Assembly (NCBI RefSeq): GCF_011045215.1
Contig: NZ_CP049201.1
DNA: 64,000 nucleotides
Direction: 5' to 3' (one strand)
Source of the DNA: Escherichia coli
GTDB lineage: Bacteria > Pseudomonadota > Gammaproteobacteria > Enterobacterales > Enterobacteriaceae
A model generated the notes under the pieces. The model made no database searches. It was not told where the DNA came from and worked only from the letters and a program-made list of their open reading frames with translations. Made by a program: the position numbers and the translations under genes. Of the stretch, positions 51,800-61,457 are shown piece after piece (position 1 is the stretch's first letter; each line of letters opens with the position of its first letter).

Positions 51800-53491
51800 A
51801 TGAAAACGCTGCTGATTATTGACGCTAATCTCGGTCAGGCACGCGCCTATATGGCGAAGACCCTGCTGGGCGCGGCGGCGCGAAAAGCAAAACTGGAAAT
51901 CATCGACAATCCGAATGACGCAGAAATGGCGATTGTTCTCGGTGATTCCATCCCGAATGACCGCGCGCTGAACGGTAAAAATGTCTGGCTGGGCGATATT
52001 TCCCGGGCAGTTGCGCACCCTGAGCTGTTCCTGAGTGAAGCCAAAGGCCATGCGAAACCTTACACTGCGCCGGTCGCTGCGACAGCACCGGTTGCCGCCA
52101 GCGGTCCGAAACGCGTAGTTGCGGTGACTGCTTGCCCGACTGGCGTAGCACACACCTTTATGGCGGCTGAAGCCATTGAAACCGAAGCGAAAAAACGTGG
52201 CTGGTGGGTGAAAGTTGAAACCCGTGGTTCTGTTGGTGCGGGTAATGCAATCACTCCCGAAGAAGTAGCCGCAGCGGATCTGGTGATTGTGGCGGCAGAT
52301 ATCGAAGTGGATCTGGCGAAATTTGCTGGTAAACCGATGTATCGTACCTCTACCGGTCTGGCGCTGAAGAAAACCGCGCAGGAACTGGATAAAGCGGTTG
52401 CTGAAGCAACGCCGTATGAACCGGCGGGCAAAGCTCAAACGGCGACCTCTGAAGGTAAGAAAGAGAGTGCAGGCGCATACCGTCACTTGCTGACGGGCGT
52501 CTCTTACATGCTGCCGATGGTCGTTGCAGGTGGTCTGTGTATCGCGCTTTCTTTTGCTTTTGGTATCGAAGCGTTTAAAGAGCCGGGTACGTTGGCAGCG
52601 GCGCTGATGCAGATTGGTGGTGGTTCAGCCTTTGCGCTGATGGTGCCGGTACTGGCAGGTTACATTGCCTTCTCCATTGCCGATCGTCCGGGTCTCACGC
52701 CGGGTCTGATTGGCGGTATGCTGGCGGTCAGCACCGGTTCTGGCTTCATTGGTGGTATTATTGCGGGCTTCCTGGCTGGTTACATTGCGAAGTTAATCAG
52801 TACGCAACTGAAACTGCCACAGAGTATGGAGGCGCTGAAACCGATCCTGATCATTCCGCTAATTTCCAGTCTGGTGGTCGGTCTGGCGATGATCTACCTG
52901 ATCGGTAAACCGGTTGCTGGCATTCTCGAAGGGTTGACTCACTGGCTGCAGACCATGGGGACTGCGAATGCGGTTCTGCTGGGGGCGATCCTCGGTGGCA
53001 TGATGTGTACTGACATGGGCGGTCCGGTAAATAAAGCAGCGTACGCATTCGGTGTGGGTCTGCTGAGTACTCAAACCTATGGCCCGATGGCGGCGATTAT
53101 GGCGGCAGGTATGGTGCCACCGCTGGCAATGGGTCTGGCAACAATGGTGGCGCGTCGCAAATTTGACAAAGCGCAGCAGGAAGGTGGCAAAGCCGCTCTG
53201 GTTCTTGGTCTGTGCTTTATTTCGGAAGGTGCAATTCCGTTTGCTGCTCGTGATCCGATGCGTGTGCTGCCGTGCTGTATCGTGGGTGGGGCGCTGACTG
53301 GCGCAATCTCAATGGCGATTGGTGCGAAACTGATGGCACCGCACGGTGGTCTGTTTGTTCTGCTGATCCCTGGCGCTATTACGCCGGTACTGGGTTACCT
53401 GGTAGCAATTATTGCCGGTACGCTGGTGGCGGGTTTGGCCTATGCCTTCCTGAAACGTCCGGAAGTGGACGCAGTAGCGAAAGCCGCGTAA
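51800..53491 (+). CDS. fruA: fructose PTS EIIB'BC component FruA
   Basis: 563-aa ORF with duplicated IIB domains (…VTACPTGVAHTFMAAE…) and IIC membrane domain. Confidence 0.95.
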   Translation: MKTLLIIDANLGQARAYMAKTLLGAAARKAKLEIIDNPNDAEMAIVLGDSIPNDRALNGKNVWLGDISRAVAHPELFLSEAKGHAKPYTAPVAATAPVAASGPKRVVAVTACPTGVAHTFMAAEAIETEAKKRGWWVKVETRGSVGAGNAITPEEVAAADLVIVAADIEVDLAKFAGKPMYRTSTGLALKKTAQELDKAVAEATPYEPAGKAQTATSEGKKESAGAYRHLLTGVSYMLPMVVAGGLCIALSFAFGIEAFKEPGTLAAALMQIGGGSAFALMVPVLAGYIAFSIADRPGLTPGLIGGMLAVSTGSGFIGGIIAGFLAGYIAKLISTQLKLPQSMEALKPILIIPLISSLVVGLAMIYLIGKPVAGILEGLTHWLQTMGTANAVLLGAILGGMMCTDMGGPVNKAAYAFGVGLLSTQTYGPMAAIMAAGMVPPLAMGLATMVARRKFDKAQQEGGKAALVLGLCFISEGAIPFAARDPMRVLPCCIVGGALTGAISMAIGAKLMAPHGGLFVLLIPGAITPVLGYLVAIIAGTLVAGLAYAFLKRPEVDAVAKAA

Positions 53492-53504
53492 TAAAAGGTG
53501 TGTT

Positions 53505-53529
53505 ACAGGGCAGAAATTTACTGCCCTGT
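53505..53529 (+). terminator. hairpin immediately downstream of fruA (weak terminator)
   Basis: ACAGGGCAG-aaattta-CTGCCCTGT; poor U-tract. Confidence 0.45.
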
Positions 53530-53647
53530 ATCATTGGATGAGCGCAAAGAGAATGACCGGTTTGTGAATGTAATTTTATGAATTTAAATGGTTTTATCTT
53601 TCAGTAGAAACCTGAAACGTTCATCAAACACTAAGGTTATTTCCTCA

Positions 53648-53674
53648 AGGGCAGATTCTTTTCTGCCCTTTTTT
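53648..53674 (+). terminator. intrinsic terminator downstream of fruA
   Basis: AGGGCAGA-ttctttt-CTGCCCT-TTTTT. Confidence 0.75.
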
Positions 53675-53914
53675 AGTGTTCATGTTCTGTGCATCCCGTC
53701 ACAAATTCCTCGCTTTTGTAATTCAGGCATTTAATCGCATTTTGTGAGCCTGCTCAAATCTGCCCGCTTTGCCTCTCTGGCGGCAATTTACTTTACGTAA
53801 AACATGCATACTATGAGCACATGTTTAAATATGAACACATGTTTAAACCGTCTTTGCAGTATCTATATCCTTGTGGATTGACAGGGTTGGTAATTTTTTA
53901 CCAGAGGACGTGCT

Positions 53915-54856
53915 ATGCGCGAAAAGGATTATGTCGTAATTATAGGTTCGGCGAATATTGATGTCGCCGGATATTCACATGAATCATTAAATTATGCGGA
54001 TTCAAATCCAGGTAAAATAAAATTTACGCCTGGTGGAGTAGGGCGAAATATTGCACAAAATCTGGCGTTGCTGGGTAACAAAGCCTGGCTACTGAGCGCA
54101 GTAGGCAGTGATTTTTATGGCCAATCGCTGCTAACGCAAACCAATCAATCTGGCGTTTATGTCGATAAATGCCTGATTATGCCGGGAGAAAATACGTCGA
54201 GCTATTTATCATTACTCGATAATACCGGTGAAATGCTGGTTGCTATAAATGACATGAATATTAGCAACGCTATTACAGCTGAATATCTCGCACAGCACCG
54301 TGAATTTATTCAGAGGGCAAAGGTCATTGTCGCGGACTGTAATATCAGTGAAGAGGCACTGGCATGGATTCTGGATAATGCCGCCAACGTACCCGTATTT
54401 GTCGATCCGGTTTCAGCGTGGAAATGTGTCAAAGTGCGCGACCGTCTAAATCAGATCCACACTCTGAAGCCAAACCGCCTTGAAGCGGAAACCCTGAGTG
54501 GGATAGCGCTGTCAGGGCGTGAAGATGTGGCAAAGGTTGCCGCCTGGTTCCATCAACATGGCCTGAACCGACTGGTATTGAGCATGGGCGGCGACGGCGT
54601 TTATTACAGTGATATCAGCGGTGAAAGTGGTTGGTCTGCGCCGATCAAAACCAATGTTATTAATGTTACCGGAGCGGGCGATGCCATGATGGCGGGACTT
54701 GCTTCGTGTTGGGTAGACGGAATGCCGTTTGCCGAATCTGTTCGTTTCGCACAGGGATGTTCGTCAATGGCGCTCTCCTGTGAATACACCAATAACCCCG
54801 ATTTATCGATTGCCAACGTTATATCGTTAGTGGAGAACGCAGAATGTCTGAATTAA
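53915..54856 (+). CDS. psuK: pseudouridine kinase PsuK (YeiC)
   Basis: 313-aa PfkB-family ORF (…TPGGVGRNIAQNLALLG…GAGDAMMAG…). Confidence 0.9.
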   Translation: MREKDYVVIIGSANIDVAGYSHESLNYADSNPGKIKFTPGGVGRNIAQNLALLGNKAWLLSAVGSDFYGQSLLTQTNQSGVYVDKCLIMPGENTSSYLSLLDNTGEMLVAINDMNISNAITAEYLAQHREFIQRAKVIVADCNISEEALAWILDNAANVPVFVDPVSAWKCVKVRDRLNQIHTLKPNRLEAETLSGIALSGREDVAKVAAWFHQHGLNRLVLSMGGDGVYYSDISGESGWSAPIKTNVINVTGAGDAMMAGLASCWVDGMPFAESVRFAQGCSSMALSCEYTNNPDLSIANVISLVENAECLN

Positions 54857-55782
54857 AAATTTCCCCTGAATTATTACAAATTTCCCCGGAAGTGCAGGAC
54901 GCTTTAAAAAACAAAAAACCGGTTGTGGCGCTGGAATCGACCATTATTTCTCACGGGATGCCGTTCCCACAAAATGCCCAGACCGCAATTGAAGTTGAAG
55001 AAACTATTCGTAAACAGGGCGCTGTACCTGCCACTATCGCCATTATTGGCGGCGTGATGAAAGTTGGTTTAAGCAAAGAAGAAATTGAATTACTGGGTCG
55101 TGAAGGGCATAACGTGACCAAAGTTAGTCGTCGCGATTTACCTTTTGTTGTTGCCGCCGGAAAAAATGGCGCAACCACTGTGGCTTCAACGATGATTATT
55201 GCGGCGCTTGCCGGAATTAAAGTATTTGCCACCGGGGGAATTGGTGGTGTGCATCGCGGGGCGGAACATACCTTCGATATTTCTGCCGATTTGCAAGAAC
55301 TGGCAAATACTAATGTCACCGTTGTTTGTGCCGGGGCGAAATCTATTCTCGATTTAGGATTAACCACTGAGTATTTAGAAACCTTCGGTGTGCCGTTAAT
55401 TGGCTATCAGACTAAAGCGCTGCCTGCGTTTTTCTGCCGTACCAGCCCGTTTGACGTCAGCATTCGTCTCGACAGCGCCAGTGAAATTGCCCGTGCAATG
55501 GCGGTGAAATGGCAAAGCGGGCTGAACGGTGGCCTCGTGGTAGCGAACCCGATCCCGGAACAGTTTGCGATGCCAGAACACACTATCAATGCGGCGATCG
55601 ATCAGGCGGTAGCTGAAGCTGAAGCGCAGGGTGTTATTGGTAAAGAAAGTACGCCATTCCTGCTGGCGCGCGTTGCTGAACTGACCGGCGGTGACAGCCT
55701 GAAATCCAACATTCAACTGGTGTTCAACAACGCCATTCTGGCGAGTGAAATTGCCAAAGAATACCAGCGTCTCGCGGGTTAA
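54844..55782 (+). CDS. psuG: pseudouridine-5'-phosphate glycosidase PsuG (YeiN)
   Basis: 312-aa ORF overlapping the psuK 3' end; indigoidine-synthase-A-like family. Confidence 0.9.
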   Translation: MSELKISPELLQISPEVQDALKNKKPVVALESTIISHGMPFPQNAQTAIEVEETIRKQGAVPATIAIIGGVMKVGLSKEEIELLGREGHNVTKVSRRDLPFVVAAGKNGATTVASTMIIAALAGIKVFATGGIGGVHRGAEHTFDISADLQELANTNVTVVCAGAKSILDLGLTTEYLETFGVPLIGYQTKALPAFFCRTSPFDVSIRLDSASEIARAMAVKWQSGLNGGLVVANPIPEQFAMPEHTINAAIDQAVAEAEAQGVIGKESTPFLLARVAELTGGDSLKSNIQLVFNNAILASEIAKEYQRLAG

Positions 55783-55875
55783 TTTCTGACGGGCAGAAAG
55801 CCGTCGCCCGTACTCATCAAACATACCAAAACCTGGCGCTGACGCCGGGTTTACTGGCATGAAGGGAAAATCATT

Positions 55876-57126
55876 ATGGACATAATGAGAAGTGTTGTGG
55901 GGATGGTGGTGTTACTGGCAATAGCATTTCTGTTGTCGGTAAATAAAAAGAGCATCAGTTTGCGCACGGTTGGAGCCGCACTGCTGCTGCAAATCGCTAT
56001 TGGTGGCATCATGCTCTATTTTCCGCCGGGAAAATGGGCTGTAGAACAGGCGGCATTAGGCGTTCATAAAGTGATGTCTTACAGTGATGCCGGTAGCGCC
56101 TTCATTTTTGGTTCGCTGGTCGGGCCGAAAATGGATGTCCTCTTTGACGGTGCGGGTTTTATCTTCGCCTTTCGCGTACTCCCGGCGATTATCTTCGCCA
56201 CTGCGCTCATTAGTCTGCTGTACTACATTGGCGTGATGGGGCTGCTGATTCGCATCCTTGGCAGCATTTTCCAGAAAGCCCTCAACATCAGCAAAATCGA
56301 ATCTTTTGTTGCGGTTACCACTATTTTCCTCGGGCAAAATGAGATCCCGGCGATCGTTAAACCGTTTATCGATCGCATGAATCGCAACGAGTTGTTTACC
56401 GCAATTTGTAGCGGGATGGCGTCCATTGCGGGTTCGATGATGATTGGTTATGCCGGAATGGGCGTACCAATTGACTACCTGTTGGCGGCATCGCTGATGG
56501 CGATCCCCGGCGGTATTTTGTTTGCACGTATTCTTAGTCCGGCAACCGAGCCTTCGCAGGTCACATTTGAAAATCTGTCGTTCAGTGAAACGCCGCCAAA
56601 AAGCTTTATCGAAGCGGCGGCGAGCGGTGCGATGACCGGGTTGAAAATCGCCGCCGGTGTGGCGACGGTGGTAATGGCGTTTGTCGCAATTATTGCGCTG
56701 ATTAATGGCATTATCGGCGGAATTGGCGGCTGGTTTGGTTTTACCAATGCTTCTCTGGAAAGTATTTTTGGCTATGTGCTGGCACCGCTGGCGTGGATCA
56801 TGGGTGTGGACTGGAGTGATGCCAACCTTGCGGGTAGCCTGATTGGGCAGAAACTGGCGATTAACGAATTCGTCGCTTACCTGAGTTTCTCCCCATACCT
56901 GCAAACGGGCGGTACGCTGGAAGTGAAAACCATTGCGATTATCTCCTTTGCGCTTTGTGGTTTTGCTAACTTTGGTTCTATCGGTGTTGTCGTTGGGGCA
57001 TTTTCGGCTATTTCGCCAAAACGTGCACCGGAAATCGCTCAGCTTGGTTTACGGGCGCTGGCAGCAGCAACGCTTTCCAACCTGATGAGCGCGACCATTG
57101 CCGGGTTCTTTATTGGTTTAGCTTGA
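55876..57126 (+). CDS. psuT: NupC-family nucleoside transporter PsuT (YeiM)
   Basis: 416-aa polytopic ORF; paralogue of nupX at 59063. Confidence 0.9.
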   Translation: MDIMRSVVGMVVLLAIAFLLSVNKKSISLRTVGAALLLQIAIGGIMLYFPPGKWAVEQAALGVHKVMSYSDAGSAFIFGSLVGPKMDVLFDGAGFIFAFRVLPAIIFATALISLLYYIGVMGLLIRILGSIFQKALNISKIESFVAVTTIFLGQNEIPAIVKPFIDRMNRNELFTAICSGMASIAGSMMIGYAGMGVPIDYLLAASLMAIPGGILFARILSPATEPSQVTFENLSFSETPPKSFIEAAASGAMTGLKIAAGVATVVMAFVAIIALINGIIGGIGGWFGFTNASLESIFGYVLAPLAWIMGVDWSDANLAGSLIGQKLAINEFVAYLSFSPYLQTGGTLEVKTIAIISFALCGFANFGSIGVVVGAFSAISPKRAPEIAQLGLRALAAATLSNLMSATIAGFFIGLA

Positions 57127-57193
57127 GTTTCATTGCCGGATGTACTCGCTTATTAAGCGTTGCATCCGGCAATCGCGCTATTGCAAATAATTT

Positions 57194-57853
57194 TTACTGC
57201 ATCATCCCGGAGAATTTATTCTCCGGGTCCATCTCCAGCGCCAGCCCTGACAACTGCTTTCTGTTTTTAATTAGATATCCTTTCTTGCTTTTAATTAATA
57301 AACCGTCGTGAATGAATTGCGCAAGAACATATAAAAGATGTCGATAAGAAACGCCTAAATACTCTGCCGCTTGCGTATGCTTTTCGTGATAAAGATCACC
57401 TTCTTGTGAGAGTAATATAAATGCTGCCAGGCGATTCACTAACGGAAATGATTGATTCTGAGTTAAAGAAACAATATTACGATAATTTTTATGACTTAAG
57501 GTGACGCAAAGTTTTCGTAAAAATAGGGTATCGTTTAATAACAGCGGACGGTAATGTTTCATAGGGAGCGCAAGGCACCAACACTCTTCAATCGCCTGTA
57601 CTGCACGTGGTTCATGGTCTTTATCGATTAACTCAATCTCGCCAATAAAACAGGGGGCGGCAAAGAAATCGATCAGCGACACGCGACCATTAGCTAGCGT
57701 GGCGTAAAGCCTGGCGCGGCCTCGCGTCAGGTAAAACAGCCAGGACGGCTGTTGCCCTTCCTGCACAATGTAGTCACGCGCTAAAAAATGAAACAGCCGC
57801 GTATCGGCTGAAACATCCGTTAAAAAGCAATCCTTAAACGCGGATTCACTCAT
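57194..57853 (-). CDS. yeiL: CRP/FNR-family transcriptional regulator YeiL
   Basis: 219 aa from the ATG at 57851-57853 ([24 protein letters not shown]…); cNMP-binding-like domain and C-terminal HTH. Confidence 0.88.
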
Positions 57854-58021
57854 CAATTGCAGCTTAAGATCATTATTGTGGATTTCTTTCACGATGTTTA
57901 TCCGCTATGAGATTTCTCATATTTAGCATACGTACGCTGTTGTTAAGATTCAATCATCGGCCCGGTCGAATTTTCTTTGCTGTAGAAAAAATAACGCAAC
58001 TGGAAACAGAGGAAATAAACA

Positions 58022-58963
58022 ATGGAAAAGAGAAAAATTATTCTGGATTGTGATCCGGGTCATGATGATGCTATTGCAATGATGATGGCAGCGAAACATC
58101 CGGCAATAGATTTATTAGGCATCACTATTGTAGCGGGTAATCAGACGCTTGATAAAACATTAATTAATGGCCTGAATGTTTGCCAGAAACTGGAGATTAA
58201 TGTTCCGGTTTATGCGGGGATGCCGCAGCCCATTATGCGTCAACAAATCGTTGCCGATAATATTCACGGTGAAACCGGACTGGATGGCCCGGTATTCGAG
58301 CCGCTGACCCGCCAGGCAGAAAGCACTCATGCGGTGAAATACATCATTGATACCCTGATGGCAAGCGATGGCGATATCACTCTGGTGCCGGTTGGTCCGC
58401 TTTCAAATATCGCGGTGGCAATGCGTATGCAACCCGCGATCCTGCCCAAAATCCGTGAAATTGTGCTAATGGGCGGCGCTTACGGTACAGGCAACTTCAC
58501 GCCATCTGCCGAGTTCAACATCTTTGCTGACCCGGAAGCCGCACGCGTGGTGTTCACCTCTGGCGTTCCATTAGTGATGATGGGCCTCGATCTTACCAAC
58601 CAGACCGTTTGCACCCCGGACGTAATTGCTCGGATGGAAAGGGCAGGCGGCCCTGCCGGAGAGCTGTTCAGCGACATCATGAACTTCACTCTCAAAACGC
58701 AGTTCGAAAACTACGGCCTGGCTGGCGGCCCGGTGCACGACGCCACCTGCATCGGTTATCTGATTAACCCTGATGGCATTAAAACCCAGGAGATGTACGT
58801 CGAAGTGGACGTCAACAGTGGCCCTTGTTATGGGCGTACCGTCTGCGACGAGCTGGGCGTTCTTGGCAAGCCCGCTAATACCAAAGTCGGCATCACTATT
58901 GATACCGACTGGTTCTGGGGCTTAGTCGAAGAGTGCGTGCGCGGCTACATCAAAACCCATTAA
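58022..58963 (+). CDS. rihB: pyrimidine-specific ribonucleoside hydrolase RihB (YeiK)
   Basis: 313-aa ORF with nucleoside hydrolase N-terminal DCDPGHDD motif. Confidence 0.93.
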
Positions 58964-59062
58964 GTGTTGATAACAAGCCGGGCCGGTATCGCAAGATGCA
59001 GGCCTGGCTATTTCTGATGGGCAGAAAGCCGTCGCCCAATATGACATGAAGAGATAATCACT

Positions 59063-60313
59063 ATGGATGTCATGAGAAGTGTTCTGGGAATGGTGGTATT
59101 GCTGACGATTGCGTTTTTACTGTCAGTAAACAAGAAGAAGATCAGCCTGCGTACCGTTGGCGCGGCGTTAGTGTTACAGGTCGTGATTGGCGGCATTATG
59201 CTTTGGTTACCGCCAGGGCGTTGGGTCGCTGAAAAAGTCGCTTTTGGCGTGCATAAAGTGATGGCGTACAGCGACGCGGGTAGCGCATTTATCTTCGGTT
59301 CTCTGGTCGGACCGAAAATGGACACCTTATTTGATGGCGCAGGATTTATCTTTGGTTTCAGAGTATTACCGGCAATTATCTTCGTCACCGCGCTGGTGAG
59401 TATTCTCTATTACATCGGTGTGATGGGGATCTTAATTCGCATTCTCGGCGGTATCTTCCAGAAAGCATTAAATATCAGCAAGATCGAGTCATTCGTCGCG
59501 GTCACTACCATTTTCCTCGGGCAAAACGAAATTCCGGCAATCGTCAAACCCTTTATCGATCGGCTGAATCGCAATGAATTATTTACAGCGATTTGTAGTG
59601 GCATGGCCTCAATTGCCGGTTCGACAATGATTGGTTACGCCGCACTGGGCGTACCTGTGGAATATTTGCTGGCGGCATCGTTAATGGCGATCCCAGGCGG
59701 GATCTTGTTTGCCCGCCTGTTAAGCCCGGCTACGGAATCTTCGCAGGTTTCTTTTAATAACCTCTCTTTCACCGAAACACCGCCAAAAAGCATTATTGAA
59801 GCCGCCGCGACAGGGGCAATGACCGGGCTGAAAATCGCTGCGGGTGTGGCAACAGTGGTGATGGCATTTGTTGCCATCATTGCGTTAATTAACGGTATTA
59901 TCGGCGGCGTTGGCGGCTGGTTTGGTTTTGAACATGCCTCGCTGGAGTCCATTTTAGGTTATCTGCTGGCCCCACTGGCGTGGGTAATGGGTGTTGACTG
60001 GACTGATGCGAATCTTGCCGGGAGTTTGATTGGACAGAAACTGGCAATAAATGAATTTGTCGCTTATCTCAATTTCTCACCCTATCTGCAAACGGCTGGC
60101 ACTCTGGATGCTAAAACCGTGGCGATTATTTCCTTCGCGTTGTGCGGTTTCGCTAACTTTGGTTCTATCGGGGTGGTGGTGGGGGCGTTTTCTGCGGTTG
60201 CGCCACACCGTGCGCCGGAAATCGCCCAGCTTGGTTTACGCGCGCTGGCGGCGGCGACACTTTCTAACCTGATGAGTGCCACCATTGCCGGGTTCTTTAT
60301 TGGTTTAGCGTAG
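59063..60313 (+). CDS. nupX: NupC-family nucleoside transporter NupX (YeiJ)
   Basis: 416-aa ORF, highly similar along its length to psuT. Confidence 0.9.
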   Translation: MDVMRSVLGMVVLLTIAFLLSVNKKKISLRTVGAALVLQVVIGGIMLWLPPGRWVAEKVAFGVHKVMAYSDAGSAFIFGSLVGPKMDTLFDGAGFIFGFRVLPAIIFVTALVSILYYIGVMGILIRILGGIFQKALNISKIESFVAVTTIFLGQNEIPAIVKPFIDRLNRNELFTAICSGMASIAGSTMIGYAALGVPVEYLLAASLMAIPGGILFARLLSPATESSQVSFNNLSFTETPPKSIIEAAATGAMTGLKIAAGVATVVMAFVAIIALINGIIGGVGGWFGFEHASLESILGYLLAPLAWVMGVDWTDANLAGSLIGQKLAINEFVAYLNFSPYLQTAGTLDAKTVAIISFALCGFANFGSIGVVVGAFSAVAPHRAPEIAQLGLRALAAATLSNLMSATIAGFFIGLA

Positions 60314-60368
60314 TGTGCGATTTATGAGCCGGATAAGATGCGGTCAAGCGTCGAATCCGGCAACATTG

Positions 60369-61457
60369 TTACACCATTGGCACTAATGAAAGCGCGTTAT
60401 CGGCAGACAGGGTAGGGTTGTTTAAGCTGCCGCTGGCGCGTGAAATTGCCGCGCAGGCCATCGCAAAACGGGCGCTGTCACGGAAATTGTTTCCTTCCAG
60501 AAAGCTATATACCAGGCCCGCCATAAAACCATCGTCAGCACCAAAACTGTCTACTGTCGTATGCGCTGGTGCGGTCAGCAAAAATTGTTCTCCATCCTTT
60601 TCGCTGCAATAAACTGACTCATCGGGCAAATAAACAAACAGTTGCTGAACACCTTGCTGATGCAACGCATTCACTGCAGCATTACGGTCAGCATCGCTGG
60701 TGATCGCCTGTCCCCATAAAATTTCCAGCTCCGGTAAAGTGGGTTTCAGGGTGTGAATATGCGCCAGCCAGTGTTTGATTTTGCCCGCTTTGAATTCTGA
60801 AACGGTATCGACAAACACCGGGATCTCACCAGCGAGGGTAAAGACCCATTCCAGCGCCTCGGCTGTCAGGTTGCAATCAGCCAGTACCACGCCCGCATGA
60901 CGAAGTAAATCGCGCGACCCGTTCAATAATTGCGGCGATAACTGTTCCAGCAGATGGGTATCGTTAATCGCCAACACGGTTTCATCGTCTCGATTGGCAA
61001 TTGCCAGATACGTCGATGTGCTTTGGCCATGTAAACGAACGCAGCCGGAGACATTCACGCCGGCGCGGCGCGTTTCTTCCAGGAGCATTTCGCCATAAAA
61101 GTCATCGCCAATCACTGAAAGCAAATGGACGTCACGGCCTAACAGCGCCAGATTGTGGGCGATGTTGCGTCCCACGCCGCCCGCTGAGCAATGAATTGTA
61201 CCGGGATGAGAAGCCGATTGCGGGTAACGGATATCCGCCATCCCGCGAATATCCATATTGATTGTCCCCACCACTACGCAGTATTCCTGCTCGGTGAGAA
61301 TGTAACCTTTGCCTTTAATCCGGCCTTTGCGCATTAAATCCATAATATGCGCCGCAACGCGCGAACGGCTGATTTGCAGCATGTCCGCAATTTCGTTCTG
61401 CTGAATCAGCGGGTTACGCCGTAAAATTGCAAGGATCTCCTTTTCCCGGTTATTCAT
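60369..61457 (-). CDS. yeiI: HTH-fused PfkB-family sugar/nucleoside kinase YeiI
   Basis: 362-aa ORF: N-terminal winged-HTH-like region (MNNREKEILAILRRNPLIQQNEIADMLQISRSRVAAHI…) fused to a ribokinase-like domain (…GGVGRNIAHNLALLG…). Confidence 0.88.
   Translation of the reverse strand: MNNREKEILAILRRNPLIQQNEIADMLQISRSRVAAHIMDLMRKGRIKGKGYILTEQEYCVVVGTINMDIRGMADIRYPQSASHPGTIHCSAGGVGRNIAHNLALLGRDVHLLSVIGDDFYGEMLLEETRRAGVNVSGCVRLHGQSTSTYLAIANRDDETVLAINDTHLLEQLSPQLLNGSRDLLRHAGVVLADCNLTAEALEWVFTLAGEIPVFVDTVSEFKAGKIKHWLAHIHTLKPTLPELEILWGQAITSDADRNAAVNALHQQGVQQLFVYLPDESVYCSEKDGEQFLLTAPAHTTVDSFGADDGFMAGLVYSFLEGNNFRDSARFAMACAAISRASGSLNNPTLSADNALSLVPMV

Follow-up and report, generated by a model that had tools for sequence, protein, structure and literature searches.

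Among the hairpins described from enterobacterial messenger RNAs (mRNAs) are the stability hairpins of the ompA 5' stem-loop and of the malE-malF and pap intercistronic regions, and the translation-coupled attenuators of rph-pyrE and pyrBI. Here we compare with them a 23-nt stem-loop, HP1, found in the leaders of two transporter genes, psuT and nupX, within a 64,000-nt stretch of Escherichia coli DNA (contig NZ_CP049201.1; the whole stretch is hereafter called the window). HP1 very probably acts on the psuT and nupX messages at the RNA level and is most likely a cis-acting post-transcriptional element; its mechanism, including transcription through HP1, its processing or recognition, and its effect on expression, is what we infer from comparative data. 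Like the stability hairpins, HP1 is GC-rich, stands beside an A/U-rich single strand at a boundary between cistrons needing different expression, would act in cis on RNA, and occupies a place that unrelated hairpins can fill in related lineages. Unlike those hairpins, which have no conserved loop, HP1 retains six bases of its loop and an unvarying inner stem from genus to genus, and processing at HP1 is only proposed. With rph-pyrE and pyrBI it shares an intercistronic position 6–10 nt past an upstream stop codon, a pyrimidine-related gene next in line, and a hairpin with a U run nearby. In contrast to them, HP1 has no U run, the terminator-like hairpin that follows it in the psuT leader (HP2) is ~50 nt away from the stop codon, a U-rich pause tract is lacking, and at nupX at least 47 nt separate the element from the rihB stop. 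An attenuator of the pyr type was therefore rejected, since HP1 is not a terminator and the 6–10 nt spacing occurs in psuT-type leaders only. In layout HP1 resembles stability hairpins and protein-binding leader hairpins, without having the features that define any named family. We found no earlier paper, Rfam family or K-12 annotation for it, and it is apparently an undescribed structured mRNA leader element confined to the psuT/nupX clade of the Enterobacteriaceae.

The + strand gene order in the window is fruA-psuK-psuG-psuT-yeiL(-)-rihB-nupX, with names taken from the RefSeq annotation of the closest match, strain PapM-32-1 (99.7% over 3.4 kb), where yeiI is also named; the open reading frames of the window agree with that annotation. 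psuT and nupX encode paralogous NupC/CNT transporters that are 88% identical in protein, 78% in DNA and 46% at fourfold-degenerate sites. A first-pass annotation of this DNA had reported a 27-mer upstream of each gene, the two differing at one base, and both copies are present as described (Table 1). The psuT copy abuts the psuG stop (TAA, 55780-82) and has the psuT ATG 67 nt downstream; the nupX copy begins 47 nt past the rihB stop (58961-63), with the nupX ATG 25 nt downstream. Because neutral sites are only 46% identical, a 26/27 match in non-coding DNA is far above chance (~1e-8 in neutral DNA, by our own arithmetic from fourfold-site identity). No third match at up to 3 mismatches occurred in the window, and 100 shuffles gave 0 matches. 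Of 5426 complete E. coli genomes, 5424 matched a 37-nt query, at a median of 2 places each, and the 27-mer is accordingly not a dispersed, REP-like repeat; REP, BIME, ERIC and MITE elements were rejected on this count, on the 2 model hits in 64 kb, and on the lack of a K-12 repeat annotation. K-12 MG1655 holds both copies (2257402-2257428 and 2254171-2254197, - strand), and its annotation marks nothing in either spacer.

The two copies are not the tail of a duplicated upstream coding sequence: psuG and rihB are unrelated, the sequences 5' of HP1 are unrelated between the paralogues, and homology between the spacers starts at the 27-mer. It had also been proposed that the rest of the spacers has diverged. 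This is only partly so: both E. coli spacers contain the ribosome-binding block ATGAAGgGAaAATCAtTATGGA, and strain SCPM-O-B-8794 carries 19 extra nt 3' of the nupX HP1 (TAACGGGATCAGACCTGAC; locus L002, 6665-6683) that align with the psuT linker. Since SCPM-O-B-8794 retains these 19 nt, the window strain has a deletion in its nupX leader (59038-59048), which puts HP1 ~10 nt from the Shine-Dalgarno sequence.

We examined structure in a gapless alignment of 45 distinct hairpins, in which pair numbers are alignment columns. In HP1 a stem of 5–6 bp, NNNGGC/GCCNNN, carries a loop of 11 nt whose consensus is AGnnnGCnGUC. Its three inner pairs are 98–100% paired and essentially invariant, and the outer pairs change in step: pair 11-29 is G-C in 40 hairpins, A-U in 4 and G.U in 1; pair 10-30 is C-G in 33, U-A in 6 and U.G in 3; and pair 9-31 is A-U in 15, G-C in 13 and G.U in 4, being unpaired in the remaining 13. 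These compensatory changes (C-G/U-A, G-C/A-U and A-U/G-C, with G.U intermediates) hold pairs 9-31, 10-30 and 11-29 by double or wobble changes, as in a structured cis-element. The HP1 covariation score and its double changes were matched by 0 of 500 shuffles and exceeded every slid control, and an RNAalifold consensus of 24 long leaders contained the HP1 helix and no other. HP1 was also the most stable local fold in 45/45 sequences (mean -9.0 kcal/mol); the psuT copy folds at -10.1 kcal/mol with a pairing probability of 0.98. In the nupX copy the outer A/A (59017/59039) is unpaired in the window strain and is A-U in SCPM-O-B-8794.

The single difference between the E. coli copies conforms to this pattern. 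The first-pass annotation had read the substitution as weakening the nupX stem, but the conserved fold compensates the C->T change (59018) with a G->A change (59038): C55790/T59018 is mirrored by G55810/A59038, one base past the 27-mer, which turns C-G into U-A. U.G and G.U intermediates occur in E. albertii and in the commonest metagenomic E. coli allele. The hairpin originally drawn, GACGGGC-AGAAA-GCCGTC, is able to fold (-7.2 kcal/mol), but it is not the most stable structure and not the one that is conserved. It was less stable than HP1 in 45/45 sequences (mean -0.24 versus -9.0 kcal/mol) and is broken in most genera, with its pair 11-22 unpaired in 31/45 sequences, and 389 of 500 shuffles reached its score. 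Covariation thus supports an RNA stem, but that of HP1 rather than the one proposed.

Strand bias points the same way. A covariance model scored the two + strand sites at 38.5 and 34.3 bits, against 10.1 on the - strand and 10.3 for the next best site in the window. The G.U pairs are on the + strand, which is also the strand of the genes, and these wobble pairs together with the strand asymmetry indicate an RNA read in the gene sense and not a duplex-DNA operator. Of the functions suggested by the first-pass annotation, the pattern of change therefore indicates an RNA structure in the leader, and a DNA operator is unlikely. At least 90% conservation extends to loop positions G16, G20, C21, G23 and T24 as well as to the inner GGC/GCC pairs.

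Several other structures were tried at HP1 and set aside. Extensions of the stem into the loop (15-25, 16-24 and 17-23) are often compatible with pairing (G16.U24 in 43/45, U/C17-G23 in 30/45) but show no covariation, and an alternative hairpin, TTTCTG/CAGAAA, was 52.6% paired, had similar slid controls and is stable only in Escherichia. HP1 is not an intrinsic terminator, as no U tract follows it (the sequence continues with GUACUCAUC or AAUAUGAC). By inspection, a selenocysteine insertion sequence or read-through stimulator past the psuG stop was discarded (in E. coli psuG ends in UAA, spacer lengths are not always divisible by three, and no stop codon stands near the nupX copy), as was a leader peptide or small open reading frame over HP1, whose frame is not conserved. 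We also looked by eye for trp-like 2:3 pairing and for a pseudoknot that would join the 3' arm or loop of HP1 to HP2, to the linker or to the ribosome-binding site; only short complementarities turned up, and these were either species-specific or invariant. Rfam 15 has no family at HP1 up to E = 10 except isrJ (RF01393), a weak full-length match at 55779-55853, from HP1 to HP2, that is below threshold (20.1 bits versus a gathering score of 37; E = 3.9 in an 8 kb search); we treated it as a chance likeness in the hairpin-linker-terminator layout. ARAGORN found 0 tRNA or transfer-messenger RNA genes in 53000-61000.

To survey relatives, orthologues were retrieved independently of HP1, by a protein-based scan of species genomes, from contigs with close homologues, and by a metagenome scan for the start-codon block ATCAYTATGGAYRTMATGAGAAG. 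The unit NNNGGC-[11 nt]-GCCNNN was found upstream of the transporter in 67/68 unique leaders, and HP1 precedes psuT- or nupX-type genes in at least 9 enterobacterial genera (with named records from Escherichia, Citrobacter, Klebsiella, Kluyvera, Enterobacter, Leclercia, Buttiauxella, Superficieibacter and Entomohabitans). The element is thus conserved well outside the strain in which it was noticed, and conservation together with covariation supports the function that its retention had suggested. HP1 was not found at the more distant NupC-family loci (L007-L081). It always lies at the 5' edge of paralogue homology, regardless of the upstream gene or the distance to the ATG, and only in psuT-type leaders does the psuG stop stand 6–10 nt 5' of it. 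Genomes vary in their modules, having psuKGT alone (K. michiganensis, Leclercia, E. albertii), yeiL-rihB-nupX alone (Buttiauxella, K. spallanzanii), or both in either order; in E. hormaechei, for instance, rihB-nupX precedes psuKGT. The yeiI gene (HTH domain plus PfkB kinase) is usually convergent to the last transporter gene.

At the level of sequence comparison, these data show that HP1 was inherited by both paralogues with the rest of the leader and held by purifying selection across the Enterobacteriaceae. Synteny and leader features, together with a tree of weak support, suggest that the psuT/nupX duplication is older than the split of these genera; the nupX sequences cluster in a neighbour-joining transporter tree with a bootstrap of only 11.5%, so this age depends mainly on synteny and leader features. 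The first-pass annotation had a 27-mer retained since that ancient duplication. What was kept is a 23-nt hairpin with ~12 constrained bases, whereas the 26/27 identity is peculiar to Escherichia: E. coli 27-mers differ at 1–2 positions (38–41 differences in the first 150 coding nt), and paralogue pairs elsewhere differ at 10/27 and 24/150 (Kluyvera) or 12/27 and 34/150 (E. hormaechei). The E. coli copies share derived states, judged against Citrobacter psuT and Buttiauxella/Kluyvera nupX, namely C at loop position 22, A at 17 in nupX, and the TTTCTGA flank. Going by these alignments, the 26/27 identity, with that of the TTTCTGA flank and of the loop variant AGAAAGCCGTC, is an Escherichia-specific homogenisation; gene conversion over a very short tract or selection acting in parallel could each be its source. 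Inside the tract the U-A pair of the nupX type persists, E. coli strains show no co-variation between the alleles of the two copies, and E. albertii has no nupX. Near-identity of paralogous non-coding sequences in one species can thus overstate long-term retention.

Table 1. Genes and leader features of the psuT–nupX region, in window coordinates
Feature	Position	Strand	Details
Hairpin 3' of fruA	53647-53670		strong, terminator-like: AAGGGCAGA...TCTGCCCTT, then T run
psuG	54844-55782	+	
27-mer, psuT copy	55783-55809	+	TTTCTGACGGGCAGAAAGCCGTCGCCC; 6-nt 5' flank TTTCTG plus first 21 nt of HP1
HP1, psuT leader	55789-55811	+	5' arm ACGGGC 55789-94; loop AGAAAGCCGTC 55795-805; 3' arm GCCCGT 55806-11
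Linker	55812-55828	+	single-stranded, G-poor; motif ATCAnnnATACC (55816-27); in most psuT-type and some nupX-type leaders
HP2	55829-55852	+	terminator-like, AAACCTGGCG-CTGA-CGCCGGGTTT; core stem 55832-38/55843-49; A tract pairs with 3-U run 55850-52
psuT Shine-Dalgarno to start codon	55863-55878	+	AAGGG 55863-67; conserved spacer AAAATCATT; start codon 55876-78
psuT	55876-57126	+	
rihB	58022-58963	+	
HP0	58976-59009	+	34-nt hairpin AGCCGGGCC-N16-GGCCTGGCT; minimum free energy fold; after rihB, directly 5' of nupX 27-mer
27-mer, nupX copy	59011-59037	+	TTTCTGATGGGCAGAAAGCCGTCGCCC; 1 base different from psuT copy
HP1, nupX leader	59017-59039	+	TGGGC 59018-22 pairs with GCCCA 59034-38; loop 59023-33
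nupX Shine-Dalgarno to start codon	59049-59065	+	AAGAGA 59049-54; spacer TAATCACT; start codon 59063-65
nupX	59063-60313	+	

HP1 comes first among the modules of these leaders, ahead of the linker, HP2 and the ribosome-binding site (Table 1), and is the sole universal one, at distances of 23–66 nt from the ATG and ~10 to ~50 nt from the ribosome-binding site, which is followed in the leader consensus by the conserved spacer ATCATT. The linker is shortened or absent in some leaders (e.g. loci L116, L142 and L196). Across relatives HP2 takes the form AAACCUGGCG-loop-CGCCGGGUUU, with folds of -13 to -21 kcal/mol in 34 unique leader regions; its 3' arm and UUU are the most invariant stretch of the spacer, its covariation is almost nil, and with only 3–4 U it was not called by a terminator scan. 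Most nupX leaders have neither HP2 nor much of the linker, while K. spallanzanii nupX retains HP2. HP0 has no homologue anywhere in the psuT spacer; its stem has G.U or G-C among E. coli strains, and nupX leaders of Buttiauxella, of Kluyvera and of several metagenomic sequences have unrelated hairpins where it stands. Each leader has one terminator-like hairpin, either 5' or 3' of HP1. Near the start codons, psuT has a possible local hairpin (UCAUUAU-GGAC-AUAAUGA, 55871-55892) that includes the start codon, and a possible nupX helix (AUGACAU...AUGUCAU), different from that of psuT, encloses the ribosome-binding site and start codon.

We favour a reading of HP1 as a processing or stability boundary, to which we give somewhat less than an even chance. 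HP1 would mark the 5' boundary of the transporter cistron within psuKG-psuT and rihB-nupX transcripts. Nucleases would enter or cut in the A/U-rich single strand immediately 5' of HP1, and HP1 itself, with its sequence-constrained loop, would be a recognised, protective structure. In this way the transporter segment could have a stability or translatability of its own, distinct from that of the enzyme genes upstream, and a leaky terminator-like hairpin (in psuT HP2, 3' of HP1; in nupX HP0, 5' of HP1) would lower transporter transcription further. Given a psuG stop only 6–10 nt 5' of HP1, a terminating ribosome would have to melt the 5' arm, so that in psuT-type leaders HP1 would form only after its release. 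Transcription through the spacers is compatible with several observations: no sigma-70-like promoter was found upstream of HP1 (promoter and terminator consensus scans around the element in E. coli, Hafnia and K. spallanzanii were empty), psuG and psuT expression is reported to change together (PMC12803456), and chimeras from Hfq cross-linking and ligation, with the hybrids then sequenced (Hfq-CLASH), place both psuT and nupX mRNAs in vivo (PMC7213987).

Several points weigh against HP1 as a stability boundary, or against the evidence for it. The aligned sequences are related, and the compensatory changes represent perhaps ~3–5 independent events by our estimate. In the Entomohabitans psuT leader (L087, 597-708) an unrelated hairpin of ~15 bp, CAGGCGCTGTTCCCGG...CCGGGAAACAGCGCTG, replaces HP1, and the Serratia/Hafnia sister clade has no HP1 and instead a different conserved long hairpin, CCTGAAAGGTGG...CCTTTCAGG, with TAAATAAAAAC 5' of it. 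Such replacements fit a generic structural role and leave the conservation of the HP1 loop unexplained. A peak for the sigma-S holoenzyme in systematic evolution of ligands by exponential enrichment (SELEX) lies within psuG (PMC5493296) and may reflect a promoter that serves psuT separately; HP1 would then belong to a 5' untranslated region and would not be intercistronic. Term-seq tables list no RNA end in either spacer, possibly owing to low expression; no RNA end or interaction at HP1 appears in Term-seq, Hfq-CLASH, ProQ-study or attenuator-catalogue data, and no partner of HP1 was identified. As to the replaced hairpins themselves, the Entomohabitans psuT leader has an HP2 equivalent without a U run and the nupX copy of the same genome retains HP1. 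The Serratia/Hafnia-type spacers (L007 3370-3430, L008 3410-3470, and L009/L010 upstream of 3501) include that of 'Klebsiella sp. BIGb0407'.

A second explanation, possible but on balance doubtful, is that HP1 is bound by a dedicated trans-acting regulator, either a protein or a small RNA (sRNA), that switches transporter translation or read-through according to the supply of nucleoside or pseudouridine, with the loop and inner stem as recognition surface. The conservation of the loop speaks for a specific partner: six of its positions, like the inner GGC/GCC pairs, are conserved to 90% or more over genera and both paralogues, when neutral sites are 49% identical, and the E. coli copies agree in loop and flank as if fitting one partner. 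HP1 also recalls the ribonucleic antiterminator (RAT) sites of BglG-LicT, the two-hairpin ANTAR sites and lambda boxB, in that a small hairpin with a conserved loop stands in a leader with a terminator-like hairpin. It differs from all of these in that HP1 does not overlap the terminator (which may be upstream), its loop is off-consensus, and no PRD or ANTAR regulator is encoded nearby. Candidate factors were not found, and none of the regulator genes occurs at every locus: those of K. michiganensis and Leclercia lack yeiL, and those of Buttiauxella and K. spallanzanii lack yeiI. Further copies of HP1 are absent from the 64 kb window and from the flanks of the fetched loci. The variable distance between HP1 and the ATG or ribosome-binding site, with a terminator-like hairpin on either side, argues against an antiterminator or a riboswitch built of HP1 and HP2. 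The CLASH contacts reported for these mRNAs are in coding regions, with CpxQ at the first psuT codons (55885-55935) and with both CpxQ and CyaR at the internal nupX sequence GGTGGTGGTGGGGG (PMC7213987), which suggests sRNA control inside the psuT and nupX coding regions, separate from HP1.

The same leader could in principle be a ligand-sensing riboswitch or attenuator in which HP1 and the linker respond to, for example, pseudouridine or a pyrimidine nucleoside and HP2 serves as a terminator expression platform. This would agree with constraint over the whole psuG-psuT spacer (65% identical among five psuT orthologues, versus 49% at fourfold sites), its conserved unpaired bases, the hairpin and U run ahead of the ribosome-binding site, and fold z-scores of -3.3 and -4.0. 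We consider it improbable: HP1 persists where the linker (several psuT-type leaders) or HP2 (most nupX leaders) is missing, no alternative pairing between HP1 and HP2 is conserved, HP2 has only 3–4 U, and HP1, with 23 nt and no Rfam match, is below known aptamer size. Assignment as a riboswitch was rejected on the same grounds, as only HP1 is universal and alternative helices are not conserved.

Less probable again is that HP1 acts in duplex DNA, whether as an operator or within an internal promoter. Its GGGC-N11-GCCC forms an inverted repeat, the sigma-S peak lies in psuG, and a ATAAAAAC motif occurs 5' of HP1 in several psuT- and nupX-type leaders (L086, L087, L142, L175 and L203). However, the outer arms covary and the half-sites are not fixed, the G.U pairs (G16.U24 in 43/45, and the outer U.G and G.U) would be C.A mismatches on the other strand, the two strands score asymmetrically (38.5 versus 10.1 bits), the promoter scans were empty, and the 5' sequences are unrelated between paralogues; a palindromic DNA operator was rejected accordingly. 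We also considered the RfaH-recruiting ops element, GGCGGTAGCGTG, because the HP1 3' half, GCnGTnGC, has equivalents of C3, G5, T6 and G8 and one metagenomic variant reads GCGGTAGC. An ops element needs G4, G5, T6, A7 and G8 and the T11-G12 pause; RfaH recruitment is abolished by the ops changes G4C and A7T, and T11 is present in all validated targets (PMC5995543). The E. coli sequence, aGCCGTCGCCCG, has C at each of ops positions 4, 7 and 11, and HP1 covaries with a 5' arm 15–20 nt away, which is impossible within a transcription bubble; HP1 was not assigned to ops.

Least probable of all, that HP1 has no function of its own and its identity is a recent short gene-conversion tract would account for E. 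coli copies that differ at 1–2 of 27 positions but at 38–41 of 150 coding nt, and may explain the Escherichia-specific identity of loop and flank, but as a full explanation it is contradicted by conservation and covariation over at least 9 genera (including genomes with a single paralogue), by the nupX-lineage U-A pair inside the tract and by the lack of co-variation between alleles of the two copies across E. coli strains. Processing or stability and factor binding stand well ahead of the other three explanations, those of a riboswitch, a DNA operator and conversion alone.

Some features of the region lie outside this question. The segment 55700-59100 is unusually diverse in E. coli, with 2100 of 5430 records only 90–95% identical to the window over 3.4 kb and 15 below 90%. 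The hairpin that follows fruA coincides with a 3' end at ~2259533 (Adams et al. 2021, supplement). The substrate of PsuT has so far not been demonstrated (PMC11241209).

psuKGT and rihB-nupX are poorly understood salvage or catabolic modules, and a covarying HP1 offers a concrete, easily mutated handle on how enterobacteria set transporter levels against those of the upstream enzymes. We regard as tentative, and more likely wrong than right, a more specific proposal that HP1 and its leader are an undescribed enterobacterial cis-regulatory RNA, either a hairpin for an RNA-binding regulator or a module for the entry of nucleases, governing the uptake of pseudouridine and of pyrimidine nucleosides, the Escherichia copies being alike to fit the same partner. 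If the loop is a binding site, HP1 would lead to a new post-transcriptional regulator of nucleoside uptake, and such control would bear on how gut bacteria handle pseudouridine and nucleoside drugs and on engineered strains that produce pseudouridine.

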